From NCBI GenBank assembly GCA_050013255.1, contig JBEKFP010000001.1, forward strand, positions 1,280,001-1,344,000: a stretch of DNA of 64,000 nucleotides, read 5' to 3'. This document shows positions 8,179 to 28,610 of this stretch, in pieces. How positions within the stretch are numbered: position 1 is the stretch's first letter; the number at the start of each line of letters is the position of its first letter. Source of the stretch: Candidatus Bathyarchaeia archaeon. GTDB taxonomy: Archaea > Thermoproteota > Bathyarchaeia > 40CM-2-53-6. Made by a program: the position numbers and the translations under genes. The notes beneath the pieces were generated by a model. That model was not told the origin of the DNA. It saw nothing but the letters and a program-made list of their open reading frames with translations, and searched no databases.

Positions 8179-10623
8179 TTGGCAGAAATTAAGAAGCCTG
8201 TAACTGTAATAGACCGCAGGGACTTCCTCAAATTATCAGCGATAACAGGAGTTCTAGCGTATGGCGCACTCTCATCCGACAACATCGTGCTAAACGCCCT
8301 TGAGCGTGTCTCTTCCGAAGTACCATTTCAGAGTAGCAGTAGTCAACCCACCCTCTTCAGAACTGCACATGCAAATAATTGCGATGGATCCTGCGGACTC
8401 ACAGTCACCGTAATCGACGGCAACATGACGAAGATAAGCAACGCCAGCTTCAACAACCCCGACTTTCCACCTAGGATATGCCTCCGAGGACTATCTAACC
8501 TCCAATACGTCTACCACCCTGACCGATTGAAGTACCCCATGCAGAATGTCGGCCCCAGGGGAAGTGGTCAATGGAAACGGATCACGTGGGATGAAGCGAC
8601 GACCATTATCGCGAATAAGTTCAATGAAGTTGCTCAGAAATACGGCCCCACTGCAGTCTACATCGCCCCCTACACGGGTAGCCTTACCGCGCTCAATGGT
8701 GTGATTGGAGCCGGTTACAGGTTTGCAAGCGTGATTGGTGCAAGCGCCGGCGATTTCGAAGGCGACAACGAAGGCGATTCAGCAGGGCCTTGCGGCGCGG
8801 TGGAGGCGCTTGGTAATTTTGACGGCCATGACCTTTCAGACCTGCGCAATTCACGCATGATCATTCTTTGGGGGAACAACCTTGCCGAAACCGACGTACC
8901 CGACATGCGATTTGTACTAGACGCCAAAGAAGCGGGAGGGAAGATAGTCTACATTGACCCTAGGTACACATCTACAGCATCTCTCGCTGACGAATGGATT
9001 TCCATACGGCCAGGAACCGATGGCGCCTTAGCACTCAGCATGATCAACGTGATCATCAGCGAGAACCTGTACAAGGCCGATTACGTAACGAATTACACTG
9101 TTGGTCCTTTTCTTGTGCGCCAAGACACGCAGATGTTCCTCAGGGAGAAGGACGTCGCCGGTGGAGACTCAACCAAGTACATGGTTTATGATTCCAATAG
9201 CAAAACAATTGTTCCGTCCGACAAAGACGGCATAGCGCCCTCACTCACTGGCTCATACAGCGCTGCGAGCACATCCTGCAAGCCCGCTTTTCAGCTGCTC
9301 ATCGATTTGGTGAGTCAGTACCCAACTTCTGAAGCTGAGAAAATAACTGGAGTTGCCGCCGCGGAGATTGAGAGCTTAGCCAAGGAGTTCGCGACGACGT
9401 CCCCAGCAGCAATCAAGGCTGGGTTCGGAGGAATCTCACACTGGTTCTACGGCGACCTGACATACAGGGCCATGATAACCCTCTCCGCCATATGCGGCAA
9501 CATCGGAGTACACGGCGGTGGTGTCACAATTTACAATGGCGCCCTACTGGACGCGGCTCTGGACCTTCCGGATTGGATGAACCCCGACAAGAAGACGTAC
9601 ACATACCTTGCACCCATCTTATTCTGCGATGCAGTACTGAACAGTAAGCCATTCCCAGTGAAAGCAGCGTGGTTCCCTGTGGACAACTTTGTGAACCAAC
9701 AAGCTGACACTAACCGCGTCATCTCCGCCCTTAAGGCGTGTGATTTCGTGGTTGTCTCGGACGTCTTCATGACTGCCACAGCGCAGTACGCGGACATCGT
9801 TCTACCAGTCGCCACACAATACGAACGCGAAGATCTGCTTGCAGGCGGAAACTACTACCTACAATACATGCCAAAAATAATCGATCCCCTGTGGGAAACC
9901 AAAGCTGACCTGGACATGTTCGCCGAAGTCGCCCAGAAGATGGGCCAAGGACAATACTTCGACAAAACTCCTGACGAATACATTAGCCTCCTCCTCAGCG
10001 GACTCCCCTCGGGACTAACGTTGGACACGTTGAAGAGCAAGGGTGTCGTGGCTTTGGCGGACGAAGATTTCTACACTTCCTCATTCCAACCAATCACACA
10101 CCCCTACGTTCCATACTACCAACAACACTTCCCCACACCGTCAGGCAGAATCGAATTCTATGTTGAATCCCTCATCCCCTACAACATGCCGCTACCCATC
10201 TACAAGGAACCAATTGAAGCGTCACCATCCAACTCGCTCTACCAGAAGTACCCTCTCGTAATGATAACATCACACACAAAATTCAGAACCCACACGCAGT
10301 GGAATAACTTGCCTTGGCTACGAGAGATCATCCCAAGGTCCTTCCTCGAAATTCACCCAACCGACGCTCAAGCACGAGGGATCAGTGATGGTGACACTGT
10401 GAACGTGTTTAACGACCGCGGCTCAATCCAACTCATGGCCAGAATCACAAACGGAATCAGACCGGGCGTTGTGAACGCATACCAAGGTGATTGGCAGGAA
10501 TTTCCCACGGCCGCAATCAACATGCTAACGCACCAGAAAGTGAACGAAGCACAATCCGTAGTCTTCCTGTTCCAATCCAATACCGCGTACTATGATATCC
10601 TGGTTGATGTTAAGAAATCATGA
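8179..10623 (+). CDS. Molybdopterin oxidoreductase catalytic subunit (DMSO reductase superfamily), Tat-exported
   Basis: RRDFLK Tat motif; HANNCDGSC..C FS0 motif; RLKYP, ADIVLP, PSGRIEF; C-terminal MGD-binding domain. Confidence 0.93.
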   Translation: MAEIKKPVTVIDRRDFLKLSAITGVLAYGALSSDNIVLNALERVSSEVPFQSSSSQPTLFRTAHANNCDGSCGLTVTVIDGNMTKISNASFNNPDFPPRICLRGLSNLQYVYHPDRLKYPMQNVGPRGSGQWKRITWDEATTIIANKFNEVAQKYGPTAVYIAPYTGSLTALNGVIGAGYRFASVIGASAGDFEGDNEGDSAGPCGAVEALGNFDGHDLSDLRNSRMIILWGNNLAETDVPDMRFVLDAKEAGGKIVYIDPRYTSTASLADEWISIRPGTDGALALSMINVIISENLYKADYVTNYTVGPFLVRQDTQMFLREKDVAGGDSTKYMVYDSNSKTIVPSDKDGIAPSLTGSYSAASTSCKPAFQLLIDLVSQYPTSEAEKITGVAAAEIESLAKEFATTSPAAIKAGFGGISHWFYGDLTYRAMITLSAICGNIGVHGGGVTIYNGALLDAALDLPDWMNPDKKTYTYLAPILFCDAVLNSKPFPVKAAWFPVDNFVNQQADTNRVISALKACDFVVVSDVFMTATAQYADIVLPVATQYEREDLLAGGNYYLQYMPKIIDPLWETKADLDMFAEVAQKMGQGQYFDKTPDEYISLLLSGLPSGLTLDTLKSKGVVALADEDFYTSSFQPITHPYVPYYQQHFPTPSGRIEFYVESLIPYNMPLPIYKEPIEASPSNSLYQKYPLVMITSHTKFRTHTQWNNLPWLREIIPRSFLEIHPTDAQARGISDGDTVNVFNDRGSIQLMARITNGIRPGVVNAYQGDWQEFPTAAINMLTHQKVNEAQSVVFLFQSNTAYYDILVDVKKS

Positions 10624-16459: not shown

Positions 16460-16900
16460 TCAATCCCCGCGTCGCGATCGTGAAACGGCGACCGCAGGTG
16501 TCAGGACTTGAACGCCCAGGCGCAAGAGTTCCCTGGATTTGAAATGTTTCTTGTTGTAGGTGATGATTGTTGACGGCGACCTCGCTAGGGCTAACGCTGC
16601 AAACGGCGCATCTGTCTCATCCCGCACTAATTTCAGCGCTCCTTTGAGGCTGCTATTGTAGCCCGAAAGTGGGACGAATTCAACGTTCTCCAAGAGACGG
16701 TCCAAAGCTTCTTCAAGCTGCTGGTGCGTAAGACCTGCCTTGGCAGATATTTCTTTGCTATGAGCCCTGAGCTCTTCGGATAATTCAGCTGGAGCTACGA
16801 CTTCGCAATTGTCCGTATGGAGTAGAATCGCAAGGCTGGTTCTTGTGATTCCTTCCGTGCTTACCAGAGAAGACATCAAAACGTTGGTGTCGAGAATCAG
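16460..16900 (-). CDS. PIN-domain (VapC-like) toxin; probable CTG start
   Basis: ILDTN motif lies upstream of the ORF-track start; D..DAPF and ITYNKKHF; CTGA overlap with the partner stop codon. Confidence 0.85.
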   Translation of the reverse strand: MILDTNVLMSSLVSTEGITRTSLAILLHTDNCEVVAPAELSEELRAHSKEISAKAGLTHQQLEEALDRLLENVEFVPLSGYNSSLKGALKLVRDETDAPFAALALARSPSTIITYNKKHFKSRELLRLGVQVLTPAVAVSRSRRGD

Positions 16901-17115
16901 TGTTTGTATGGGCTAAGCCTCTTCCAGGCCGCGATCTTGATTTCGCGGGAGAGCTTGTCAGCTTCTTTCTTGCTTAGTTTGGATGAGGACGCTAAGACCT
17001 CCAGCACAGCGAAACTTCTCAAGAGGGCGCCCATTTTCTCACGAGAGATGCCGCTGCGCTCTGCAAGTTCAAGAATCTCGGCTGGGATTTCCACGGGAAC
17101 GGTTTCCGTGACCAT
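16897..17115 (-). CDS. Putative antitoxin of the PIN toxin
   Basis: Small gene overlapping the PIN start; N-terminal strand-helix-helix-like pattern. Confidence 0.7.
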   Translation of the reverse strand: MVTETVPVEIPAEILELAERSGISREKMGALLRSFAVLEVLASSSKLSKKEADKLSREIKIAAWKRLSPYKH

Positions 17116-17536
17116 GGTTCCACACGACATTGCATATCTTGACCATTTGAAAAAGGTTCCCAGGCGCCAGCTTCAATCACCCGACGCGACCCCGCTATTC
17201 ATTGCGTAGCCTGAGCCGTAGCTGGATCGAATCGGCCGGATTATCAGAGCATTTTCGATAATACTTCCTCGTACTCTTTCTCGAGTGTCTGTGCCGTGCG
17301 GTGGCGTGCGCGCACGCTTGGAGGGACCCCCCAGGGGGGTGGTGCATCTTCTGGGGTCAGGAGGGGTTGATTTTGCGGTTTCCCTGGGACGTGAGTAATA
17401 TGGGGCTGAGCGGACGGATGGATTCTCGAGGTGTGGCGCACGCGAATTGCCTGGTCCCGTTTTGAGGTGGGTGAGTGTTTCAGCTACCTCCCTACCCGTA
17501 CGCGTGGCGGCAAACGTCAATTCTCCTTGACGAGGC

Positions 17537-17920
17537 ATGCGACGCGGGTGTGTGAAGGAATCGGCCGAGCAAACGAGCGACGAGGCTACGACGGGGAAGG
17601 CGAAGCTGAGGATTGGGTTGTCTGCCGATGAGCATGCTGAACTGCGGAGAGCGGCCAGCGAAAGCGAGTTCCCGAACATGGCGCTTCTTGTTTTTCAGGC
17701 AATTCACGCGGGGCTTGAGGGTGACGAGGTCGTCGGTGTGCAGAGGAAGCACACGAAGAGCGTTACCATCCACATTTCTAGAGAGTTCAAGCAGAAAATT
17801 CGGGCGAGAGCACGCATGTACCGGGTGACCCAGCAAGCACTCCTCCACAGCCTACTCTTCCAATACATACGCAACAGACCATGGCTGAGGACGCAAGCAG
17901 AGAAGACGGAGGTGGCCTGA
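17537..17920 (+). CDS. Tandem ribbon-helix-helix-like DNA-binding protein
   Basis: Two repeats: LRIGLSADEHAEL and VTIHISREFKQKI. Confidence 0.6.
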   Translation: MRRGCVKESAEQTSDEATTGKAKLRIGLSADEHAELRRAASESEFPNMALLVFQAIHAGLEGDEVVGVQRKHTKSVTIHISREFKQKIRARARMYRVTQQALLHSLLFQYIRNRPWLRTQAEKTEVA

Positions 17921-17922
17921 AA

Positions 17923-18327
17923 ATGAAGAGCGAGACAGAACGAGACGGCAAGCCAACGGTCCACAAGGTGCCACTGATCACCGAGAAGGACGCGAAGGAG
18001 TACGAAGCCGTTAAGGCTGGCTTAATCGGCGAGTTGAAGAAACTGGGAAGCTACGAACCGGAAGTAGACGACCTACAAATCGACGCCATCGCCCGAGCCA
18101 CAATATACATGAAAAACCTGGAAAAACTCCTCGACTCTGAAAAGGCGAATCCTGAAACCTACAGCCGCGTCACAGACGCCCAAGCCAAACTGAGAAAGAT
18201 CATAGAAGGCGCCTTCCATGAACTCGCCGTCACACGCAGAGAAAGAATCGCGAACCAGGCCGGCAAAGCCGGGGAAGAGGAGTTGGCGAAGCTTATCCTA
18301 GAGGCGCTGAAAAATAAGCCAAAGTGA
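17923..18327 (+). CDS. Putative terminase small subunit
   Basis: Helical 134-aa protein directly upstream of TerL; GGAGGTG Shine-Dalgarno; assigned mainly by position. Confidence 0.55.
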   Translation: MKSETERDGKPTVHKVPLITEKDAKEYEAVKAGLIGELKKLGSYEPEVDDLQIDAIARATIYMKNLEKLLDSEKANPETYSRVTDAQAKLRKIIEGAFHELAVTRRERIANQAGKAGEEELAKLILEALKNKPK

Positions 18328-18352
18328 GCCCTTAAAAAAATATGCGCAATAC

Positions 18353-19642
18353 GTGGCGGAGTCGCTCAGAGACCCAGTCAATTTCGCACGCAACTTCCTA
18401 AACTTCGAACCCTTCCCATACCAGGAAGAATTTCTACGCGACGAGTCCCACCTCATCGCTGCCTGCTGCGGCCGACAAGTCGGCAAAACCACCCTAGCCG
18501 CAATCAAAGCCCTACACTACACCCTAGCCAACAACCCGGTTCGCACCCTAATCATCAGCGCCGGCCTAAGACAGAGCATGATACTCTTCGACAAAATCCT
18601 TGAGAAGACCGAGGCCGCTGTCCCAGCCAAGGTTCTAACGAGCTACAAATCCAGAACCAAGATTCGTTTCGCGAATGGGTCAGAGATTGTGGCCCTACCC
18701 TGCGGAAGGGACGGTTCAACGTTGCGGGGATTTACCGCGGATATGGTCATTCTTGACGAAGCGAATTTCATACCGAGAATTGTCATCGACTCCGTCATTA
18801 GGCCCACAATGATAACGCGCCCTAATTCGAGGTTGATTATGATTTCGACGCCTTGGGTGCGGGACCACCCGTTCTATGAAGCCATCAGCAAACCCGAGCT
18901 AGGCTTCAAAACGTACACTTGGCCCTCATCGATTAGCCCGCTAATTACGCCTGAGAAGCTTGAGGTGGAAAGGAACACGATTGGAGAATATGACTTCAAC
19001 CGTGAGTACAACGCCGCCTTCATTGACGACGAGTTCAGCTACCTACCTAGCAAATTAGTGCTAAGCTGTACCGACAGCTATGAGCTGAACGGAGAGCCAG
19101 GACCCGGGGAGAGGTACAAAGGCGAATACCTCATCGGAATAGATTTCGGAAAACACACCGACCACTCCGCAATCGCCGTCTTAGAGAAGGCTGGCGATGA
19201 TCTTCGCCTCGTCTACCTGAAGGAACTGCCGCTGGAGACCTCCTACACGGCGGTGATAGGCAGTGTGAGGAGGTTGAACGAGGCGTACGCCTTTGCGGCG
19301 GGATGCCTCGACAAGACGGGAGTGGGTGAAGGGCCCTACGAAGAGATCAAACAATTCATGCGAGGAATGGAAGGAGTCACCCTAACCGCACAAATGAAGG
19401 AAGACCTCATGGGCAAACTGAAACTCGCCTTAGAAAAAGGCAAACTCACCCTCCCAAGAGACAACCCACAACTCCTAGTCCAGATGACGGCGCAACAATG
19501 CGAAGCCACTAAGTCCGGGACGCTGAGGTTCAGCCACCCAGCCGGCACGCATGACGATCAATTGTGGAGCCTTGCATTAGCCATCTACGCATCACAACAG
19601 CAGACTCGACCGAACTTTAAGCCAATTACTCGATCTTTCTGA
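18353..19642 (+). CDS. Terminase large subunit
   Basis: PYQ, Walker A GRQVGKT, LRG, Walker B ILDEA, ISTP; RNase H-like IGIDFG...DKTGVG...HDD. Confidence 0.93.
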   Translation: MAESLRDPVNFARNFLNFEPFPYQEEFLRDESHLIAACCGRQVGKTTLAAIKALHYTLANNPVRTLIISAGLRQSMILFDKILEKTEAAVPAKVLTSYKSRTKIRFANGSEIVALPCGRDGSTLRGFTADMVILDEANFIPRIVIDSVIRPTMITRPNSRLIMISTPWVRDHPFYEAISKPELGFKTYTWPSSISPLITPEKLEVERNTIGEYDFNREYNAAFIDDEFSYLPSKLVLSCTDSYELNGEPGPGERYKGEYLIGIDFGKHTDHSAIAVLEKAGDDLRLVYLKELPLETSYTAVIGSVRRLNEAYAFAAGCLDKTGVGEGPYEEIKQFMRGMEGVTLTAQMKEDLMGKLKLALEKGKLTLPRDNPQLLVQMTAQQCEATKSGTLRFSHPAGTHDDQLWSLALAIYASQQQTRPNFKPITRSF

Positions 19643-20072: not shown

Positions 20073-20648
20073 TTAGTACTGAAAGCCTTTGACGGCTTTC
20101 TGCACACCGTGGTATTGACGAACCATGTCTGTCAATTCTACTAATAGGTCAACAACTATCTCGTCTTCAAGTTCAGCCAGTGTCTTGATTGCCTTGCGCT
20201 GGTAGTTCCCTCTTATGAGAGTTTTCGGCTTAACGTCCTTCATGAGAAAGGCGTACACCTTGTTTGAAGAACCTTTTAGTTCCTTCAGGGTGTGTGATGG
20301 ACGGGCATAGTACACGAGTGTAGTCATGCCACGTTTGATGGCGTCCAAGAACTCTAGCTTAGTCCGTTCAGAGTACTCTTTGCCGAACAGTCCGACATAC
20401 ATCTGACTCTTGTTCATCCCATCTGTCATTTTCTTTTCGATATCGCCTCCTCGACCATACTCGACGACCTCGGCGAAAAATAGCGGCTGGTAGTACGGCT
20501 CATCTGCTGCGCCCTTTTCATGCTCTCCGACTTTGCTATAGTTGACCACCTGCACCGAGTCAAGTGTTCTTTTGAGTTGCGCACGAAAATCTGAGAACTC
20601 GTCTTCGTGGGAGCTGATGAAGACGTGAATCGGTTCAGGAGGATTCAG
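20073..20648 (-). CDS. DUF4062 (TIR-like fold) protein; probable CTG start
   Basis: In-frame upstream extension encodes IHVFISS; YVGLFGKEYS..T..EF..A. Confidence 0.75.
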   Translation of the reverse strand: MNPPEPIHVFISSHEDEFSDFRAQLKRTLDSVQVVNYSKVGEHEKGAADEPYYQPLFFAEVVEYGRGGDIEKKMTDGMNKSQMYVGLFGKEYSERTKLEFLDAIKRGMTTLVYYARPSHTLKELKGSSNKVYAFLMKDVKPKTLIRGNYQRKAIKTLAELEDEIVVDLLVELTDMVRQYHGVQKAVKGFQY

Positions 20649-20670
20649 ATGTCCTCAGCCCGTCAGACGC

Positions 20671-20958
20671 TTAGCGCTTCTTCATCTTTTTAGGGCGCTT
20701 GGCTTTCTTGCGAAGCTTGTCCATCAGGACGCCTACATGATTGGGCGATATCCCTAGGATTCGGGCTATCTCTACATTGCGCAGAAGTGGTTCTTGTTGC
20801 TGGTCGTCCTCAGTGCCCGCAGAGCTTAGAAGTTCAACTCGCTGCAACAGAGTCAGTTTCCTGTCGTCGCTTGTGGGCAAAGAAAGAATCACACTTAGAA
20901 GGATATCTAGTCTCTTTACGACGTCTTCGAAATCAAATGACGCTTTCTTTGTAGCCAT
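20671..20958 (-). CDS. Small helix+HTH protein (array class B)
   Basis: VVKRLDILLSVIL...EIARILGISPNHV. Confidence 0.75.
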   Translation of the reverse strand: MATKKASFDFEDVVKRLDILLSVILSLPTSDDRKLTLLQRVELLSSAGTEDDQQQEPLLRNVEIARILGISPNHVGVLMDKLRKKAKRPKKMKKR

Positions 20959-21042
20959 TGCAAACCCTTTTGAAATTAAATACACCAAGATGCTTTTAGG
21001 TTCTTGTATGTTTGTGCCAACAATTAGAAAGGAGGTGCTCAT

Positions 21043-21201
21043 ACGAAATCGAGCGAACTGAGGCAACTGACGACCGAATTGCGAGACGTGAAGAAACTAC
21101 TTGTCCTGATTGCCGTCAAGAACAAAGCCAGTCAAACGGAAGTCGGCAAACTTCTAGGGATTACAGATCGGCAAGTACGCAATCTGCTGGTCGGAAAATG
21201 A
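21043..21201 (+). CDS. Small helix+HTH protein (array class A; not in ORF track, start codon uncertain)
   Basis: Hand translation ELRDVKKLLVLIAVKNKASQTEVGKLLGITDRQVRNLLVGK*; GGAGGTG followed by ACG. Confidence 0.65.
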   Translation, partial: TKSSELRQLTTELRDVKKLLVLIAVKNKASQTEVGKLLGITDRQVRNLLVGK

Positions 21202-21252
21202 CTTAGTCTTAATAGCAACACGAAGTCATCTTACTCCATTCAGTGAGGTGCT

Positions 21253-21351
21253 ATCCTGATTGCCTCTAAATCGGGTGCAACACAACCCGAAATTGGAAGG
21301 GCACTTGGTGTTAGTGACCATCAGGTTAGAAGAATCCTAGAGGGAGAATAG
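21253..21351 (+). pseudogene. N-terminally truncated class A HTH paralog
   Basis: ILIASKSGATQPEIGRALGVSDHQVRRILEGE* aligns with 21043-21201; in-frame TGA just upstream. Confidence 0.6.
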
Positions 21352-21389
21352 GTGACGGGAATCGTCAGCGAGGAATCAAGGGTGAAAAA

Positions 21390-21758
21390 GTGACAGGCCC
21401 ACTAGAGAAGGATGTAAGGGAGATAAGATGGCGAGTCGAGGGAGTTGAGAAATCAGTAGACCTTCTCGTTAGAGCCAATCGGCCAGAAATCATCGCAGAC
21501 CTGATGAAATTCTTCGGATGGTCAAAAGAAAGGGTGAAGGTGTTTTTGGCGGTGGATGGTGTGAAAACGGTAGAGGCAATCAAGAATGCCCTGAAAATGA
21601 AAAAGTCGCACGTCTCAGCTAGAATAACCGAACTCAAAGATGAGGGGCTGATCGAGCTGAAGAGGATCACACCAGAAGGCTACTACATATACACAAAGAC
21701 AGAGAAGGTCAAAATCCTAAACCTTGAACGCAAGCTCAGAAAGCAATTCCACCTCTAA
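21390..21758 (+). CDS. Winged-HTH protein (array class C)
   Basis: KVFLAVDGVKTVEAI...HVSARITELKDEGLI. Confidence 0.8.
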   Translation: MTGPLEKDVREIRWRVEGVEKSVDLLVRANRPEIIADLMKFFGWSKERVKVFLAVDGVKTVEAIKNALKMKKSHVSARITELKDEGLIELKRITPEGYYIYTKTEKVKILNLERKLRKQFHL

Positions 21759-21769
21759 CGGCACAAACA

Positions 21770-22525
21770 ATGTCTAGACTCTCAAACTCCGAAGCACGGG
21801 CTCAACTCCAATCTGATATTCTAAACATCTTTCACAGTAATGATTGGAAAGACACGGACGATTTCTCAGTCAAGCTAACAGCCAAGATCATGTCTGAAAA
21901 GGCTACTTCAAAACACGATATCAGAAGGTCGATTGATTCCATCCGAACTACATTCTTTCGAGCCAATGCAATCTCAAAGGAGAAAGTGTTGCGAACGCTC
22001 TTCGAGACTTTGAGCGAGAGTCTTCCATCCTACGTCTACAATGCGTCTGACAGACTCATGGTGAGCGACCTCTTCCCCGAGATCAGGAAAATATCGGATG
22101 AGGTAGCTGAGGGACGCCTAAGCAGCTTCCAGAAGGACGAAAGAACCCTTCAGGACAATCTGCGCCACGTCTTTAGGAGTAAACATGCGAGTATCCCTAG
22201 GAGAACCCATGATTCTTCTAAAGAGGTCGCAGACCTTGAGAAATTCGTTCTGAACCTCAACGGGAGGAACCTAAGTTTCGCCGTCGTTGTGAAGGGATAC
22301 AAGAGCATCAAGAAGCCAAAGCTGACTTGGGAGGATCTTGCTCATCAGATTACTAAGGCAAGGCGAGCCAATCCAGACCACATTCTTGTCATGAGCGCCA
22401 AGGAGCCTGTTGATGAACTCATCACGAGCATTGAGGAATATAACGAGGACATTTCTCGTCCAGGTTGCGTGATCTTCATTCCACCTCTCGACATGACTCG
22501 TATCTTTGTTGCGAATGGGTTTTGA
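21770..22525 (+). CDS. PD-(D/E)xK restriction-endonuclease-like protein
   Basis: E..LQ...EVADL...AVVVKG...HQI pattern in the C-terminal half. Confidence 0.6.
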   Translation: MSRLSNSEARAQLQSDILNIFHSNDWKDTDDFSVKLTAKIMSEKATSKHDIRRSIDSIRTTFFRANAISKEKVLRTLFETLSESLPSYVYNASDRLMVSDLFPEIRKISDEVAEGRLSSFQKDERTLQDNLRHVFRSKHASIPRRTHDSSKEVADLEKFVLNLNGRNLSFAVVVKGYKSIKKPKLTWEDLAHQITKARRANPDHILVMSAKEPVDELITSIEEYNEDISRPGCVIFIPPLDMTRIFVANGF

Positions 22526-22671
22526 GCGGGGTGCGGCTAAGCGTCTACGATTAGAGCCTAGTGTTAGTGTGTGAGATTGGGGCTCAGCACGGTTCGCTTC
22601 TGCTAACGCCATGTATTGTTATATACACAGTTCAGTCTTATGACATCAGAGACGTCGGAGGTGTGAAAGTC

Positions 22672-22854
22672 ATGCCAGATAAGGAATCAGAAGAACTACA
22701 GAGTATTCGAAATCTGTTGATGTTATTGCTATTCAAGATGGGGGCAACTGACGACGAGGTCGCTATTGCTCTGAATGTGACGCAGGGGCGTGTGAGCCAA
22801 ATGATGCCAGCGAGGGGAATAAAGCCCGCGCACGTTGAATGCACCACGAAATAA
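22672..22854 (+). CDS. Small helix+HTH protein (array class A)
   Basis: ELQSIRNLLMLLLFKMGATDDEVAIALNVTQGRVSQM; GGAGGTG Shine-Dalgarno. Confidence 0.75.
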   Translation: MPDKESEELQSIRNLLMLLLFKMGATDDEVAIALNVTQGRVSQMMPARGIKPAHVECTTK

Positions 22855-23037
22855 CCGAACGACACGCTGTTCTGAAAAAGAGAGTTATTGCGAAGATCTC
22901 CGACATGGAGCTTTTGCGTCTGCGGGACAACCCTCCGAAGCCTCGCCCCTGTTGCTCAATGGGTAGTGGAATCGTCTACACAATATTGCTTGAGAGAAAC
23001 ACGGCTGGGCAACCAGGTTAGAGAGGGGGAAAGGTCA

Positions 23038-23328
23038 ATTTCTAACAGTGAACGAAATCATATTCAGAGGCTAGATGCTATCATTCAAAGATTGGATGTT
23101 TTGATTAGCCTGTCGATTCCGCCCCCGCAACCAACAGTCAAGCTTGGCAAGGTCGAACAAGCAGTGTACAGCCTGTGCGACATGCAACATGCTAGGAGAG
23201 ACATGGCCATGACCTTGAACAAAACTGTAAACCTCATAGATGTGACGCTCAATAGCTTAAGGAGAAAGGGCTTGGTCAAGCCGGTTGAAATTGGAGACCG
23301 GACATGCTACGTCCGCTTGAAAGGATAA
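23038..23328 (+). CDS. Winged-HTH protein (array class C); start uncertain
   Basis: IQRLDVLISL...AVYSLCD...TLNSLRRKGLV. Confidence 0.7.
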   Translation: MSNSERNHIQRLDAIIQRLDVLISLSIPPPQPTVKLGKVEQAVYSLCDMQHARRDMAMTLNKTVNLIDVTLNSLRRKGLVKPVEIGDRTCYVRLKG

Positions 23329-23352
23329 AATCGTGGAAGCTAGGTACAACAA

Positions 23353-23826
23353 TTGACTGATGGTCTGGTCGATATCGCAAAGATGGTGGGGACGATCTCG
23401 GTCGCAATTATGTCAATTTCAGTAGTCACCTATGCCCTTGCTGTTCCCAGATTGCAGACTGCACTCTCACTCAGCCTAAAGACGATTCAAGGGAGCAAAG
23501 CAGAGCTTGAAAAGAGAATACAGGAAGAGAGCCTTGCTCTCACAGAAATTGAGGGTCAGCTGAAGAACATCGCGGACGAACAGAAAGAAATGAATAAAGT
23601 CGTCACAAGGCTCAGCTGGAGCAGGGTTGTGTTCGTGCCAGTGATTATGGCTTTTCTCGCAATCGGGGTTACTGCCATATTGTTGGAATATCCTGACCTG
23701 TACCCATTACCACTTCTTCTTGTGTCGATAGCCCTTGTGCTGGGGACTTTTACACATTTACTGGGCAGCCTTCGGCTGATAGAACAGACAACGGTTAGAC
23801 CTGAAATAAGCGTTGGAGGAGGTTGA
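23353..23826 (+). CDS. 3-TM membrane protein with coiled coil
   Basis: TM - coiled coil - 2 TM layout. Confidence 0.7.
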   Translation: MTDGLVDIAKMVGTISVAIMSISVVTYALAVPRLQTALSLSLKTIQGSKAELEKRIQEESLALTEIEGQLKNIADEQKEMNKVVTRLSWSRVVFVPVIMAFLAIGVTAILLEYPDLYPLPLLLVSIALVLGTFTHLLGSLRLIEQTTVRPEISVGGG

Positions 23827-23830
23827 AGTC

Positions 23831-24118
23831 ATGAGCGAAAGCCAGAAGGAACTTAGGGAAATCTCAACCAAGCTGGACATGATACTTGCACTAATGAGAG
23901 TTGCATTTCGTGACGCTATAGAAGCCGCAAAAGAAAAATCATTTGCTCGTTCTGACATAAAGAAGTCAATCTACGAACTGTGCGACGGCAAGAACACCGT
24001 TGATGACATGGCTAAGGAATTGAAGGTATCGTCAGCCTACGTGCGAGTCTATTTGGGAACGCTTGAAGAGGCGGGACTCGTCGTTAAAAAGGGGAGCATC
24101 TACGAGAAAGTTGTATAA
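23831..24118 (+). CDS. Winged-HTH protein (array class C)
   Basis: ISTKLDMILAL...IYELCDGKNTVDDMAKEL...LEEAGLV. Confidence 0.82.
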   Translation: MSESQKELREISTKLDMILALMRVAFRDAIEAAKEKSFARSDIKKSIYELCDGKNTVDDMAKELKVSSAYVRVYLGTLEEAGLVVKKGSIYEKVV

Positions 24119-24186
24119 CCACTAGACCGTATGATCTTGTAATGTCTGATCAGCGGCAAACTGCGTTTCTATTATAAGGTGATTAA

Positions 24187-24405
24187 ATGTCGAATAATGA
24201 ACAAATCAACGAAAGCGAGATCGTAAAGAGACTTGATGCAATCATAGCATTGCTCGCACAAACCGGAGACAGAAAAATCGGTGAGAATATGGTAGTGCTC
24301 CGGAATGCTGGACTTAGACCGACCGAGATTAGTAAGATATTGGGCAAATCACTAAGTCACGTCACGAAAGAACTTGCACTCGCAAAGAAGATTGAAAAAA
24401 AGTGA
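24187..24405 (+). CDS. Small helix+HTH protein (array class B)
   Basis: IVKRLDAIIALL...GLRPTEISKILG. Confidence 0.8.
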   Translation: MSNNEQINESEIVKRLDAIIALLAQTGDRKIGENMVVLRNAGLRPTEISKILGKSLSHVTKELALAKKIEKK

Positions 24406-24459
24406 AACCGAAACGTCGAGATGTAGCTTCTGCACCAGGTTCTCTACGTCGGTGAAAGT

Positions 24460-24690
24460 ATGGACGCCAGACAATTTGCGGAACTCTCGAAGAAAATGGA
24501 CATTGTAATCAAGCTTCTGGCGTCGAACGTAGTTCAAGGCAAAAACCTCACACAACAAGCGGCAATGCTTTCCGCAATCGGCTTAGAGATAAAAGATATC
24601 GCTCTGATATTAGACAAAGATTCACATCTGATCAGTCAAACATTGTACCGGGTGAACAAGTCGAAAAGCGGTAAGGAGGAGACGAAGTGA
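24460..24690 (+). CDS. Small helix+HTH protein (array class B)
   Basis: LSKKMDIVIKLL...GLEIKDIALILD. Confidence 0.8.
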   Translation: MDARQFAELSKKMDIVIKLLASNVVQGKNLTQQAAMLSAIGLEIKDIALILDKDSHLISQTLYRVNKSKSGKEETK

Positions 24691-24953
24691 GCGATCAGGA
24701 GACGAAGCTCGATAGATTGATTGAACTAGTTGAGGCGCTTCTTCGCACGAGGATTTCTGAACTGCTTGATAAGGAACTTGATGACCCGAAGAAGAGGAAG
24801 TTGTATGAACTCACAGGCAAGAAGAGCGTACGCGAACTCAGCGATTTAACTGAACTATCAACAGGTGCAATATCAAAAATCTGGCAAGGATGGCATTCTA
24901 AAGGTATTCTGAGGAAGCAAGGTATGTACTACGTCAAATTACTTGAAGAGTAG
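24687..24953 (+). CDS. Winged-HTH protein (array class C)
   Basis: KLDRLIEL...LYELTGKKSVRELS...WHSKGIL; GTGA overlap with the previous gene. Confidence 0.8.
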   Translation: MSDQETKLDRLIELVEALLRTRISELLDKELDDPKKRKLYELTGKKSVRELSDLTELSTGAISKIWQGWHSKGILRKQGMYYVKLLEE

Positions 24954-24960
24954 ACTAAGG

Positions 24961-25134
24961 ATGGCTGAAAGGGAATTGAAGGAATTGCAAGCCATCAAGA
25001 AACTTTTGGTGTTGCAACTATTGAATGAGGACATCAAGGCTGATGCCATTGCCGATCTCTTGGGAATGGATCGTGCCGATTTTAGTCGAATGTTTCCGGT
25101 CAGGAAATTGTTGAAACGAACGCAGCGCGAGTAG
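24961..25134 (+). CDS. Small helix+HTH protein (array class A)
   Basis: ELQAIKKLLVLQLL...AIADLLGMDRADFSRM. Confidence 0.75.
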   Translation: MAERELKELQAIKKLLVLQLLNEDIKADAIADLLGMDRADFSRMFPVRKLLKRTQRE

Positions 25135-25135
25135 C

Positions 25136-25933
25136 ATGGTTGATCTTCAAGAACTGATAATCCGAGGCAGAATTATGTTTGATGGTGCAAACAGACGGCT
25201 CGAAGTTTTCGAATTAGTAAATGGGCGATCAACAAAAGAGATAGTTAGAAAATCTGGTAGAAGTTTATCTGCGATTGATCAAGACATAGAAAAACTCAGG
25301 GATATGGAACTAATCCAAGAAAAGAAGGATGGTAAGGGAAATGTCATCAAGAAAGACGGAAGCATAGTGTACGAAAAGTCGCCATTGATTAGGCATATAC
25401 CCATTTCGTATTTCAGAGATGTGGCCGATACCAGCAAGCTCGTCAAAAAGACGAAGAAGGGGCGAACGAGGATTTCCAAACCTGCAAATATCCACGTGCC
25501 GTCGGAGAACGAAATTCTTGACATCTGCAAGGAAGGAGAAGACCAATTGTATGAATTCAAAGCCCCCGGTGTGAGCACGGATAAGATAACGAAGGAAATC
25601 GCTGGATTCTTACATACAAAAGGTGGAGGTATACTCCTCTATGGAGTTGAGGACGACGGGAGTATTATCGGAGCCGATATGAGGAGACAAGACTTCGACC
25701 AGAAAATACAGAATTCGGTCAGGAACACGATTTCCCCACCACCATCGATAGAAATCAAAGAGCGGGCAGTAATGGGTTCCGCTGTGCTGCTGGTAGTTGT
25801 TCCTCCTTGGGATAGAAAGGCAATTTATCAAAATACTCTAGATGGAAGGTACTACATACGACGTGGCACGAATATTTTTGCGCTAAAACCTGATGAAATA
25901 AAGAAGCTTTCTCAAGGAATTTTCGTTGTTTGA
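25136..25933 (+). CDS. wHTH fused to AlbA_2 (Schlafen-like) domain
   Basis: GEDQLYEFK, IAGFLHTKGGGILLYGVEDDG, YYIRRG. Confidence 0.88.
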   Translation: MVDLQELIIRGRIMFDGANRRLEVFELVNGRSTKEIVRKSGRSLSAIDQDIEKLRDMELIQEKKDGKGNVIKKDGSIVYEKSPLIRHIPISYFRDVADTSKLVKKTKKGRTRISKPANIHVPSENEILDICKEGEDQLYEFKAPGVSTDKITKEIAGFLHTKGGGILLYGVEDDGSIIGADMRRQDFDQKIQNSVRNTISPPPSIEIKERAVMGSAVLLVVVPPWDRKAIYQNTLDGRYYIRRGTNIFALKPDEIKKLSQGIFVV

Positions 25934-26010
25934 TTTGGATGGAACCGATATGAACCATGTTGGTTAGGCAGGCTAGGCAAAAGCGAGTATCGGATCGATA
26001 ATTACTCATA

Positions 26011-26568
26011 GTGAGGAAGTTGTTGGAGGCAAGTCGGAGAAAAGGGCAATGCTTCTTCTGTGGAGAGAAGGCTACGCAAGCCATTGACCTTCATCACAGA
26101 ATCCCTCAGAGCATAACGAGAAGAATCCCGAAACTCGTTCGAACCGAAGTGCTCGACGAGATCTTCGGAAAGAACTCGCAGAGACTCTATTCGCTGTGCG
26201 GAAGTTGCCATAAGAAACTTCACTCTGTCTTGAGACCGTTTGAGAAAAGCATCCTGCTATTTTCTGACATAACTAATCCGGAAAAGGAAGTGGTCTATCA
26301 GAAAATGAAGGACAGAGCTCTCATGATCATCAGCGCAGACGGAAGAAAGGAAGATACGGCTAATGTTGAACGAGTGGTTGCGAAACTTGAGAAAAAAGGG
26401 CTCGATAGAGAAGAATCTATCCGATTGCTGAAGGATCTTAGGAATGACGGGCCCATCTACTTTGTGCTGGTTGACGAGCCGAGTGCAGGGCATGATCTGA
26501 GTTTCATAAACAAGATCACATACGACTATGAGAGTGTCATGAAGGCTAGAAAGAGGCTCAGAGCGTAA
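26011..26568 (+). CDS. HNH endonuclease-like protein with C-terminal wHTH
   Basis: CFFC...LHHRIP...LCGSCHKKLH. Confidence 0.75.
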   Translation: MRKLLEASRRKGQCFFCGEKATQAIDLHHRIPQSITRRIPKLVRTEVLDEIFGKNSQRLYSLCGSCHKKLHSVLRPFEKSILLFSDITNPEKEVVYQKMKDRALMIISADGRKEDTANVERVVAKLEKKGLDREESIRLLKDLRNDGPIYFVLVDEPSAGHDLSFINKITYDYESVMKARKRLRA

Positions 26569-26696
26569 ATGGGCGCAGATGAATAAGTATCCTACTGCTA
26601 ATTCGAATCTCTATTATTAAGTAGAAATCTGTTCCTACGTGAGTAGAACGAGTTCGAGTGACACAACGGTCAGAATGCTGATTAGTCCCACGACTT

Positions 26697-26724
26697 GTGG
26701 GTTCAAATCCCACCGGCGCCACCA
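26697..26724 (+). pseudogene. tRNA 3' fragment (T-arm, acceptor strand, CCA); putative att site
   Basis: GTGGG-TTCAAAT-CCCAC-CGGCGCC-A-CCA; no complementary GGCGCCG 5' strand upstream. Confidence 0.8.
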
Positions 26725-26892: not shown

Positions 26893-27639
26893 CTATTTCA
26901 GCCGTTTGAAACTCCATGTCCCGATTCCGATCATCACGGCCGCGAACCCGGTTAGGATTAGGAGGTTGAGTGCGATGGGAAGTTGGGAGGAGCCTAGGAT
27001 TAGGCCGCGTAGTCCGTCGACGGCGTAGGTGACTGGGTCGAGGATTGTGAAGATTAGTAGGTATTGTGGCAGGTTCTTGAGTGGGAACAGCGCGCCGCTG
27101 AAGAAGAACATTGGAAAGACCAGAAAGCTCACAATCAATTGGAAACCTTCCACGCTCTCCATATTCGACCCTATGATTAACCCTAGGCTTACGAGCGCCG
27201 ACGCGAGAACAAACATGAACACAAACGAGAAGAGCACGGAGAGAATCGTGTAATTTATCCCTAGAACCAATCCGAACACAAGCATCGCACAACCCTGAAG
27301 CAGCGCATCAATGCTTCCACCAACCATCTTGCCCGCGAAAATCGTTGTACGCGAAAGTGGGGCGACGAGCACTTCCTTGAAGAAGTCGATTTTCCTATCC
27401 CACACAATGTACAGGCCGAAGAAGACGGAGGAGAACAGAATCGACATGGCAAGGATTCCTGGAAAGATGAAGACTTGGTAGTTGACGCCACCCAACGAAA
27501 CCGCGGACCCCAAACCACCCCCAAAGACTACAATCCATAGCAGGGGAGTGATGAGGGACGATACGATGCGCGACTTTTCCCGCGAAAACACCTTCATCTC
27601 CCGGTACCAAAGCGCGTAGAACCCTTCAAGCTCACCCAT
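26893..27639 (-). CDS. ABC-2 type exporter permease (DrrB-like)
   Basis: EVLVAP, FFSGALFP, PVTYAVD; 6 TM helices. Confidence 0.92.
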   Translation of the reverse strand: MGELEGFYALWYREMKVFSREKSRIVSSLITPLLWIVVFGGGLGSAVSLGGVNYQVFIFPGILAMSILFSSVFFGLYIVWDRKIDFFKEVLVAPLSRTTIFAGKMVGGSIDALLQGCAMLVFGLVLGINYTILSVLFSFVFMFVLASALVSLGLIIGSNMESVEGFQLIVSFLVFPMFFFSGALFPLKNLPQYLLIFTILDPVTYAVDGLRGLILGSSQLPIALNLLILTGFAAVMIGIGTWSFKRLK

Positions 27640-28610
27640 CAGCGCCCACTCCTCACCCGTGCAATTCGCTCGAAGACGCCGCCTTCACCCGACTCCTCCC
27701 TAATCTCACGCCCAGTATAGTGGAGGAAGACGTCGTTCAGGGTGGCCGTGCGAACCTCCACAGAATCCACCGCACCAACCATCCCGAGAATTTCCTGCAA
27801 ATGCACACTAGCATCCTTAACCGTCAATCGCAGCGTACTCCCCGACTGGTCTATGCTGAGTACATAATCCAAACCTTTCAGGCGTTCAATGTTTGGCGAG
27901 CGGACGCGGAGCTTGATGATTTCCCCGCCCACCTTCGACTTCAACGCCCCCGGGCTATCCAAAGCGGAAACCTTGCCGTGGTCGATTATGGCTACGCGGT
28001 TACAGAGCCTATCCGCTTCGTCCATGTAATGCGTCGTAATTATCACGCTAACCCTCTCGGATTTCACGAGGTTCTCAATGTACGCCCAAATGTGCTCCCG
28101 AGTCTGCGGGTCCAATCCCAACGTGGGTTCGTCGAGAAAGAGGATCCTAGGGTTATGCAATAACCCCCGCGCCAACTCCAGCCTCCTGCGCATTCCGCCG
28201 GAATACTTCTTCACGACATCGTTCGCGCGGTCCTGTAGGTCCACTAGGTTGAGGACGTAGTCTATGCGCTTCCGCCGCTCGTCCTTCGGGACGCCGAACA
28301 TAAGCGCATGCAGGTACAAGTTCTCCCGGCCGGTCAAGACGTCGTCGCTGCTGGGGTCCTGGAATACGATACCAATCGAACGCCGCACATCAGCCGGGTG
28401 GGATAGAATATCGTACCCGTTCACGCGTCCTGTCCCCGAGGTTGGCTTCAGAAGCGTGGCGAGCATAGAAAGCGTCGTAGTCTTCCCCGCCCCATTAGGG
28501 CCGACGAGCCCAAAGATTTCACCCTCCTCAATGCTCAGGTTCAACGAATCAACAGCCAGCAAATCCCCATACCGCTTCGTCAACCCTTCAGTTTCTACGG
28601 CGTGAACCAT
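27639..28610 (-). CDS. ABC exporter ATP-binding subunit (DrrA-like)
   Basis: GPNGAGKT, YSGGM, LDEPT, TTHYM. Confidence 0.95.
   Translation of the reverse strand: MVHAVETEGLTKRYGDLLAVDSLNLSIEEGEIFGLVGPNGAGKTTTLSMLATLLKPTSGTGRVNGYDILSHPADVRRSIGIVFQDPSSDDVLTGRENLYLHALMFGVPKDERRKRIDYVLNLVDLQDRANDVVKKYSGGMRRRLELARGLLHNPRILFLDEPTLGLDPQTREHIWAYIENLVKSERVSVIITTHYMDEADRLCNRVAIIDHGKVSALDSPGALKSKVGGEIIKLRVRSPNIERLKGLDYVLSIDQSGSTLRLTVKDASVHLQEILGMVGAVDSVEVRTATLNDVFLHYTGREIREESGEGGVFERIARVRSGR

Follow-up and report, generated by a model that had tools for sequence, protein, structure and literature searches.

We analysed a 64,000-nt stretch of the genome of a Candidatus Bathyarchaeia archaeon (hereafter the window; the genome comprises 2.46 Mb in three contigs), in which a 6-kb array of small helix-turn-helix (HTH) genes interspersed with larger genes occupies positions 20073-25933, within an island of ~9.6 kb. 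Fifteen open reading frames (ORFs) were read in the array, 11 small and four larger, and those listed by a first-pass annotation of the bare sequence exist at or near the places it had assigned to them. They are given below, the small genes named by their class (A, B or C) and the larger ones as E1 to E4; here and throughout, loci (L) and genomes (G) used for comparison carry our own numbers.

E1: 20073..20648, (-) strand, DUF4062/NIR-type protein, 191 aa when read from CTG 20648
B1: 20671..20958, (-) strand, class B by the class B profile, directly upstream of E1
A1: 21043..21201, (+) strand, class A three-helix HTH (Pfam HTH_23, E 1e-4)
Class A fragment: 21253..21348, (+) strand, HTH only; 5′-truncated, N-terminal helix lost, TGA just upstream
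C1: 21390..21758, (+) strand, class C winged HTH, upstream partner of E2
E2: 21770..22525, (+) strand, 251 aa, helical N-terminal half and alpha/beta C-terminal domain
A2: 22672..22854, (+) strand, class A HTH of the sub-type ending ..VSQMMPARGIKPA
C2: 23038..23328, (+) strand, class C winged HTH, from ATT 23038 after a Shine-Dalgarno (SD) sequence; a longer ORF runs from TTG 22888
E3: 23353..23826, (+) strand, membrane protein with three hydrophobic segments
C3: 23813..24118, (+) strand, class C winged HTH, ArsR-like (Pfam HTH_5, 28.4 bits); alternative start ATG 23831
B2: 24187..24405, (+) strand, class B by the class B profile
B3: 24460..24690, (+) strand, class B, 4-nt overlap with C4
C4: 24687..24953, (+) strand, class C winged HTH, 71% identical to L041:9330-9599
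A3: 24943..25134, (+) strand, class A HTH, likely start ATG 24961 (57 aa)
E4: 25136..25933, (+) strand, class-C-like winged HTH followed by Schlafen/AlbA_2 (Pfam SLFN_AlbA_2, 8.7e-19)

Small HTH families and larger genes of the array

The 11 small ORFs sort into three paralogous families, and the three recurring classes described by the first-pass annotation are real. In phmmer comparisons of the 15 local ORFs, significant similarity was found within classes and not across them: A2-A3 matched at 7e-7 and A1-A2 at 3e-4; B1-B2 at 4e-5 and B2-B3 at 2e-4; and C1-C3, C2-C3 and C3-C4 at 9e-6, 3e-6 and 2e-6 respectively. Identity within classes was 25-35%, and the best cross-class pair, B1-C2, reached a non-significant 3e-3. 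Judged by profile-profile comparison (hhalign), the classes are tied together more distantly, with probabilities of 93% for A versus B over the HTH only, 88.8% for B versus C over the N-terminal helix and the HTH, and 96% for class C versus the N-terminal 70 residues of E4.

Class A (A1, its truncated copy, A2 and A3) is a bare three-helix HTH. In class B (B1, B2 and B3), an additional N-terminal helix (..RLDxIIxLL..) is joined by a linker to an HTH that resembles the DNA-binding domains of Lrp/AsnC, LuxR, sigma region 4 and MarR, while class C (C1-C4) starts with a helix similar to that of B and continues into a winged HTH (wHTH). A related amphipathic helix had been proposed to open most of these proteins. 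This was borne out for B and C (hhalign, 88.8%) and failed for class A, where the hydrophobic 'first helix' belongs to the HTH, being its helix 1 (Pfam HTH_23 positions 3-37); the equation of the class A helix with the extra helix of B and C was accordingly rejected on the Pfam HTH_23 and hhalign alignments.

None of the three families bears a name in Pfam, PADLOC, PHROGs, the source annotations or those portions of the literature that we consulted. The first-pass annotation had likewise recognised no named system, and its view agrees with the PADLOC check: against PADLOC-DB v2, the classes gave weak matches to the HTH tails of Csa3, CasR or CARF models, or none. In PHROGs, A and B were unmatched and C had generic wHTH matches only, and pattern scans of IMG/VR with two class A sub-alignments returned no relatives. 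Source annotations label A, B and C as 'hypothetical' or, at most, with generic automatic terms, and the same holds for all of the at least 494 class A and at least 179 class B protein clusters (at 90% identity). Within the archaeon's own genome, profile searches detected A, B and C at this locus only, plus two weak generic wHTH matches.

The genes are tightly packed. A3 and E4 are separated by 1 nt, and overlaps of 4, 11 and 14 nt join B3 to C4, C4 to A3 and E3 to C3. C1 is 81% identical to L075:2485-2853, and a C1-type gene of 121-122 aa precedes every E2 homologue seen. B2 is 49% identical to L035:7375-7731, and B3 is 51% identical to L041:9097-9333, which itself precedes a C4 orthologue; orthologues of B3 and C4 stand in the same order in G016 (51% and 71% identity). 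B2 and B3 share 31% identity only, and to judge from their sequences the tandem HTH genes are not recent duplicates. Database records contain the 57-aa form of A3 and many relatives of that length, and the class A fragment shows 81% identity over 32 aa to a full 52-aa gene of a sister genome (L039:8583-8741).

Four array genes have no ATG, GTG or TTG start at the positions indicated by homology and SD sequences, and are preceded by SD-like runs (gaggtg, aggaggtg, ggggaaaggt). Their candidate starts are CTG or ATT for E1 (20556-20648), ACG for A1 (21028-21078), ATC or CTG for the class A fragment (21244-21262) and ATT for C2 (23020-23040). In A1, the SD sequence aggaggtg at 21030-21037 is followed by ACG 21043, and the first canonical start is TTG 21079.

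The first canonical start of E1 is GTG 20555 (160 aa), and its frame remains open for 33 codons further, to 20648. This extension holds the family motif VFISS..EF..R and offers no ATG, GTG or TTG, only CTG 20648 or ATT 20630; with it, E1 aligns end to end with seven homologues. Across these eight sequences F10, S12, S13, E17, R22, E63, G86, G89, S93, T96 and E99 are invariant. E1 itself scores 19.6 bits (E 0.001) against Pfam DUF4062 (PF13271), below the cut-off of 24.7, whereas its homologues at L036, L039 and L047 score 33.3, 40.9 and 27.3 bits; the match between E1 and the L047 DUF4062 protein is 4.5e-16 in phmmer. The DUF4062 assignment of the first-pass annotation thus stands through the homologues (27-41 bits), and E1 is predicted to be a DUF4062/NIR protein, that is, a member of a TIR-like NADase family. 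Characterised members have a conserved catalytic glutamate (E97, E98 or E103; 2026 preprints), to which E99 of E1 (extended numbering) would correspond by its position and its S..T..E motif. An AlphaFold2 (AF2) model of E1 (predicted local distance difference test, pLDDT, 82) has beta-alpha repeats and a long C-terminal helix, and its Foldseek matches at E ~1e-3 include ThsB, plant and bacterial TIR proteins, SARM1 and nucleoside deoxyribosyltransferases, but also GTPases. E1 (191 aa) ends in a single long helix. Its relatives measure 169-219 aa; E1 and relatives of 169-191 aa are without any AUX region of the kind seen in Swarozyc and Evangelion, and a class B gene always lies upstream of them.

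E2 is represented by 13 protein clusters only, all at ≥ 61% identity, and has no match in Pfam or PADLOC; PADLOC likewise returned nothing specific for E1 and E3. The AF2 model of E2 (pLDDT 66) gave weak Foldseek matches (E 1e-3 or weaker), with MspJI, AspBHI, EcoT38I and Hjc at the top. Residues ~107-251 reached middling VIA Z values of 4.7-6.7 to about ten nuclease domains of the restriction endonuclease (REase) fold, among them those of AF1548, AspBHI, MspJI, FokI, BspD6I, the Avs4 N-domain and Can2. D155, E157 and K175 are invariant, but a Val lies two residues before K175, and this invariance says little because the family is shallow. For the PD-(D/E)xK nuclease proposed at first, fold support is weak: the C-terminal domain may have an REase-like fold.

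As had been proposed, E3 resembles a three-segment membrane protein, with Kyte-Doolittle hydrophobic stretches at ~4-33, 86-116 and 115-140 and a coiled-coil-like middle part. The E3-C3 pair, with its overlapping ends, is kept in a genome of another family (L079; 62% and 63% identity). A distant E3 paralogue (28% identity) lies within a 298-aa ORF elsewhere in the genome (G000:C3:39662-40132; L080:1486-2382).

The Schlafen assignment of E4 is confirmed, with 68.6 bits against PF04326 (AlbA_2; cut-off 25.3). Its Ex4ExK motif reads E135-x4-E140-x-K142, and among 19 homologues E135 and K142 are invariant and E140 is ≥ 90% conserved. The family profile matches SLFN11 at 8.9e-9 and the CRISPR-associated Schlafen CbCash at 3e-7. 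E4 is an HTH-fused prokaryotic Schlafen of an RNase family. A complex prediction for E4 (19-row alignment) with A3 (44 rows) scored 0.00, which counts neither for nor against binding.

Recurrence, effector exchange and genomic setting

The loci compared came from 12 related genomes, two Nitrososphaeraceae metagenome-assembled genomes (MAGs), one MAG labelled Brocadiales and 23 metagenome contigs, the last collected with a class A sub-alignment alone. Contigs encoding E2 or class A relatives were also taken in, and all loci were scanned with local hidden Markov models (HMMs). Counts for classes A and B refer to distinct genes from the window, the 12 genomes, the three MAGs and the 23 contigs. 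Because the effector HMMs were built from the same loci, adjacency counts describe recurrence among the compared loci and are no unbiased census.

These scans confirmed that the classes co-occur elsewhere in fixed order, directly upstream of interchangeable defence-type effectors. The recurring syntax is [B]n-[C]-A-X, B-DUF4062, B-Y, C1-E2 and E3-C3, in which X stands for proteins of 225-320 aa with their own N-terminal HTH, from at least three unrelated families. X1 is the Schlafen family of E4; X2 has invariant DWGGE..DL and G..R...G motifs; X3 has invariant RK..EN and DAN.K.H motifs, by which it looks HEPN-like. Y is a Swt1-like HEPN protein (Pfam HEPN_Swt1, 5.9e-6) with invariant EN.LR and RNxxxH, and this effector, from outside the window, alone matched the PADLOC candidate PDC-M34B (1e-23). 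Sequence-profile searches of the PDB with the X2, X3 and Y families gave nothing meaningful. One further array ends in a wHTH-Ymh HEPN protein.

Within 300 nt downstream of class A, the next gene on the same strand encodes a wHTH-effector in 19/35 cases (X1 8, X2 5, X3 6) and a class C protein in 4/35. Class B is followed by DUF4062 in 7 of 45 cases, by Y in five and by another small HTH gene in 26. The B-DUF4062 order was seen at L036, L047, L059, L060, L075 and L089, and a 4-nt overlap of B and the HEPN gene at L039 and L043. Spacing in A-X, B-DUF4062, B-Y and C-E2 pairs is -14 to +24 nt, the upstream-coupled arrangement of type II toxin-antitoxin (TA) loci. Two-gene units also stand alone, as A-X at L068-L071, as B-DUF4062 at L059, L060 and L089, and as B-HEPN at L039 and L043. 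The left half of the array, E1←B1 followed by A..C1→E2, is mirrored in a metagenome contig (L075) as D←B followed by C..C1→E2 (D = DUF4062). In the longest leaders, A and the effector are preceded by four class B genes in overlapping tandem; one is from a Nitrososphaera MAG (L047:6860-9761), the other from a peat/sediment-type contig (L067:5044-7171). Before X1, leaders vary among C-C-A, C-C-B-A, B-A and A-A.

Effectors have been exchanged behind closely related small genes. The maximum-likelihood tree of class A (35 proteins, 65 columns) is poorly resolved; it includes a well-supported clade of 20 close sequences, downstream of which lie X1 (6), X3 (6), X2 (1) and class C (1). The starred branches of the tree force at least two switches for X1, two for X3 and three for X2. 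A3 itself is 75% identical to a class A protein encoded before a Schlafen gene and 61% identical to one from Nitrososphaera encoded before an X3 gene, and its relatives at 61-86% identity precede X1, X2 or X3 effectors. The distribution of the small genes is patchy, as expected of accessory, mobile genes: eight of 60 related genomes have class B and 13 have class A, with the two no more than 1 kb apart in six, and class A was found in 11/36 genomes of the window's family (E ≤ 1e-3) and in 4/250 genomes of an even sample of the phylum (match at 1e-6).

The island is bordered on its left by host genes for a molybdopterin oxidoreductase operon, Nramp and a PIN/antitoxin pair ending at 17130, and on its right by an ABC-2 transporter (26893-28610). 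Besides the array, it holds the following features:

17537-19642: TerS-like gene (possible small terminase) and TerL, in the island's left part
18353-19642: TerL, a clear large terminase (Terminase_6N/6C)
26011-26568: HNH endonuclease (PHROG HNH families, 2.6e-5), in the island's right part
26677-26724: tRNA-like 3′ end, a fragment of 48 nt

The island contains no portal, capsid or integrase gene. ARAGORN and Rfam called no tRNA in the window, and none of five genome sites similar to the tRNA-like 3′ end was called as a tRNA (0/5). About 40 nt of this end are repeated in the genome at G000:C3:134102 and 137328, and the repeats look like attachment-site scars. The bracket formed by TerS/TerL, the HNH gene and the tRNA-like end could be a decayed provirus or satellite-like element. 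TerS, TerL and HNH are absent from all other array loci compared, and the idea that the HTH genes belong to a packaging or virus module was dropped because these three do not accompany arrays elsewhere.

A separate TA-like unit adjoins the island on its left (window positions 16460-17130); it consists of a PIN-domain gene (PIN_2, 3e-12) and a small upstream partner with a weak match to an Xre-like antitoxin HTH.

Homologues of the ABC-2 transporter pair adjoin class A/effector cassettes at L043:8432-14431 (G055) and L044:6408-8247 (G048), both in another family of the order, which suggests a conserved insertion hot spot. At L037, a tyrosine integrase gene (9113-10132) overlaps tRNA-Arg(CCG) (10030-10107) beside a B-B-HEPN-A cassette, a clear element end next to an array; a second integrase flanks the array at L091, and HerA/FtsK-type ATPases adjoin those at L035 and L042. 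Other defence-type neighbours of related arrays are PNP_UDP_1, a ParB-methylase, NOV_C and a KaiC-like NTPase. A lone three-gene C-A-X2 cassette lies between top6B and top6A (topoisomerase VI) in the MAG labelled Brocadiales (Planctomycetota; L051:5972-10388), a contig whose bacterial label may deserve a check.

Proposed control of the effectors

The reading we favour gives A, B and C the role of control parts, as autorepressors and/or antitoxins, in independent TA-like or abortive infection (Abi) cassettes piled up in an integration hot spot; we put its probability at roughly 0.55. It is favoured because small HTH genes lie upstream, gene ends overlap, an enzyme whose family is known or suspected to be toxic follows, the distribution is patchy, the putatively toxic part is exchanged and the HTH is promiscuous, being with Panacea one of the two documented hyperpromiscuous antitoxin domains (NetFlax; PMC10440598). 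On this reading, a decayed integrative element would hold, one after another, four independent cassettes that have been shuffled horizontally, each with one presumably toxic immunity-type effector: E1 of an NADase family, E2 REase-like, E3 a membrane protein and E4 of an HTH-Schlafen RNase family. Each effector would have before it, as its leader, between one and four small HTH genes from the three related families, with an additional C gene after E3. The small HTH proteins, co-produced with the effector from a tightly packed operon, would hold it in check as long as the cell is not infected, through repression of the operon, binding to the effector or the two together. Infection or loss of the element would then upset this control, and the released effector would kill or arrest the cell.

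Several points weigh against this reading. Several effectors (E4, X2 and X3) have an N-terminal HTH of their own, an uncommon feature among TA toxins, and leaders of up to five tandem diverged HTH genes (L047, L067) exceed the needs of a simple antitoxin. Those NIR and Schlafen systems that have been characterised inhibit themselves and do without an antitoxin. The five intergenic regions of the array contain no inverted repeat of ≥ 8 nt. What the data show are the gene families, their order and close spacing, their recurrence, the exchange of effectors and the families to which the effectors belong; we infer, rather than observe, that the HTH proteins bind DNA or an effector, that they repress or neutralise, and that the effectors are toxic and act in defence. 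Finally, because four array genes are without canonical start codons, parts of this copy may be decaying; these genes may use rare start codons or be in early decay, the left-hand cassettes partly so, while the B2-B3-C4-A3-E4 unit looks intact from its sequence.

The same proteins could instead be pure transcriptional controllers, comparable with the controller (C) proteins of restriction-modification (R-M) systems, which would set the timing or level of the effector and never contact it. That a small HTH gene precedes, abuts or overlaps a nuclease gene, as C genes do, agrees with such a role, as does the likeness of the class B HTH to the DNA-binding domains of Lrp/AsnC, LuxR, sigma region 4 and MarR; moreover, service of a single A lineage to structurally unrelated effectors would come more easily to a DNA-binding regulator than to a protein-binding antitoxin. 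However, the five intergenic regions hold no operator-like palindromes, there is no methyltransferase or other immunity gene in need of a controller's head start, and several different HTH genes per effector would be left unexplained, and we regard pure control of transcription as rather doubtful. A similarly tentative place is given to a dedicated archaeal multi-HTH leader, a co-evolving platform for both sensing and licensing, more than a simple repressor, that would respond to a viral cue by releasing any of at least eight unrelated effectors (the membrane protein, the NIR NADase, Schlafen, two REase-like proteins and three types of HEPN).

The first-pass annotation had proposed that A, B and C use their shared helix to build a single hetero-oligomer, a DNA-sensing or repressor complex controlling the attached effector. 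B and C do have the N-terminal helix and HTH layout in common, B3-C4-A3-E4 are translationally coupled, B3-C4 is kept as a unit in G016 and multi-HTH leaders are common. An obligate A+B+C hetero-oligomer is nevertheless not supported, because two-gene cassettes stand alone elsewhere: A-X, B-DUF4062 and B-HEPN are found as minimal pairs from which the other classes are missing (L068-L071, L059, L060, L039, L043). In addition, class A has no extra helix and leader composition varies freely before the same effector family, X1. HTH proteins could form a DNA-sensing complex, but in this three-part form we consider it improbable. Little credence is likewise given to a split sensor or adaptor, in which the HTH proteins would bind a viral component and assemble or activate the effector in the manner of a separately encoded Swarozyc AUX. 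The AUX domain of Swarozyc has an HTH/winged fold and binds the phage portal, E1 and its relatives have a class B gene in place upstream and no AUX region, and the homology of stand-alone class C to the N-terminal domain of E4 is a fission/fusion pattern; yet the class B profile search matched only generic DNA-binding HTHs, the partner is upstream rather than C-terminal, and promiscuity across effectors argues against a fixed assembly geometry. Least probable, in our estimation, are ordinary virus or plasmid housekeeping regulators (repressor, excisionase or copy control) that merely lie beside unrelated cargo. The array does have TerS/TerL on one side and, on the other, an HNH gene beside a tRNA-like attachment-site scar, and integrases and HerA/FtsK ATPases flank related arrays, but TerS, TerL and HNH were found at no other compared locus, IMG/VR (pattern scan) and PHROGs contain no A or B relative, the C-A-X2 cassette stands alone between top6B and top6A, and the small genes lie next to effector families too regularly.

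Little of archaeal immunity beyond CRISPR has been charted, and for DUF4062/NIR and prokaryotic Schlafen proteins a defence action in bacteria was shown only in 2025-2026; here, minimal forms of both lie under a common small-HTH layer, which they share with HEPN and nuclease-like effectors. Should the HTH leaders act as antitoxins or sensors, A and B would provide a search handle for new archaeal effectors through guilt by association, a natural experiment in the re-use of one control part for unrelated toxins, and small clonable cassettes of 1.5-2 kb. If they are only repressors, they would give an annotation rule for at least 494 (A) and at least 179 (B) 'hypothetical' protein clusters. If the platform that licenses many effectors is real, Bathyarchaeia and Nitrososphaeria would possess a modular defence system of a new class.

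Relation to known systems

The array shares with the NetFlax TA network (PMC10440598) a small partner domain upstream of many unrelated toxic effectors, in tight, mobile and patchy gene pairs whose partners are swapped over evolution. It differs in that A, B and C are not named there, in being archaeal (Bathyarchaeia, Nitrososphaeraceae), in leaders that often comprise two to five different HTH genes instead of one antitoxin, and in the many effectors with a wHTH of their own.

E4 has the AlbA_2/Schlafen domain, the Ex4ExK motif and the HTH fusion of prokaryotic Schlafens (pSlfns; PMC13056530; Cash, PMC13462974). In the portions of these accounts available to us, pSlfns with Ex4(E/D)xK are reported as phage-defence nucleases, 8.8% of them with HTH fusions (PMC13056530); they are described there as single proteins with fused sensor domains, and the same portions mention no upstream small-HTH leader. 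Unlike the pSlfns so described, E4 has an N-terminal wHTH that is homologous to stand-alone class C genes. DUF4062, renamed NIR, acts as a TIR-like NADase in Swarozyc, Evangelion, Vulcan, Vesta and Avs (three 2026 preprints). E1 and its relatives have the DUF4062 core with its conserved glutamate, and Vesta, like E1-B1, is a two-gene unit with a small NIR protein. In contrast to these systems, E1 is without the needed AUX (required in Swarozyc and Evangelion; 2026 preprints), HEAT or ligand-binding region, its partner is a 95-aa HTH protein rather than an alkaline phosphatase, and it has no canonical start codon.

The modular Abi proteins built on AbiJ-NTD, treated together with HEPN conflict systems (PMC3710099), join one N-terminal module to swappable effectors of HEPN (Ymh, DUF4145, Swt1), Mrr-type REase and TIR/deoxyribosyltransferase folds, a repertoire nearly the same as that of the array families. 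In the array, however, a small gene of its own (A or B) supplies the constant part, often together with an effector-fused wHTH, and this part is different from the N-terminal domain of AbiJ.

In R-M systems with controller proteins, a small HTH gene lies directly upstream of the nuclease gene and often overlaps it. The array has the same placement of a small HTH gene, but no C-box-like palindrome in its five intergenic regions, no methyltransferase in 20073-26568, and effectors that are mostly not DNases. Because the pairing rules recur in other archaea, the small HTH genes look like an undescribed control layer for known anti-virus effectors. Collectively, the effector families and the design of a small partner with swappable toxins are already known; what is new is the HTH trio, its fixed order and the fact that archaea use it as a shared leader of NIR, Schlafen, HEPN and nuclease-like effectors.

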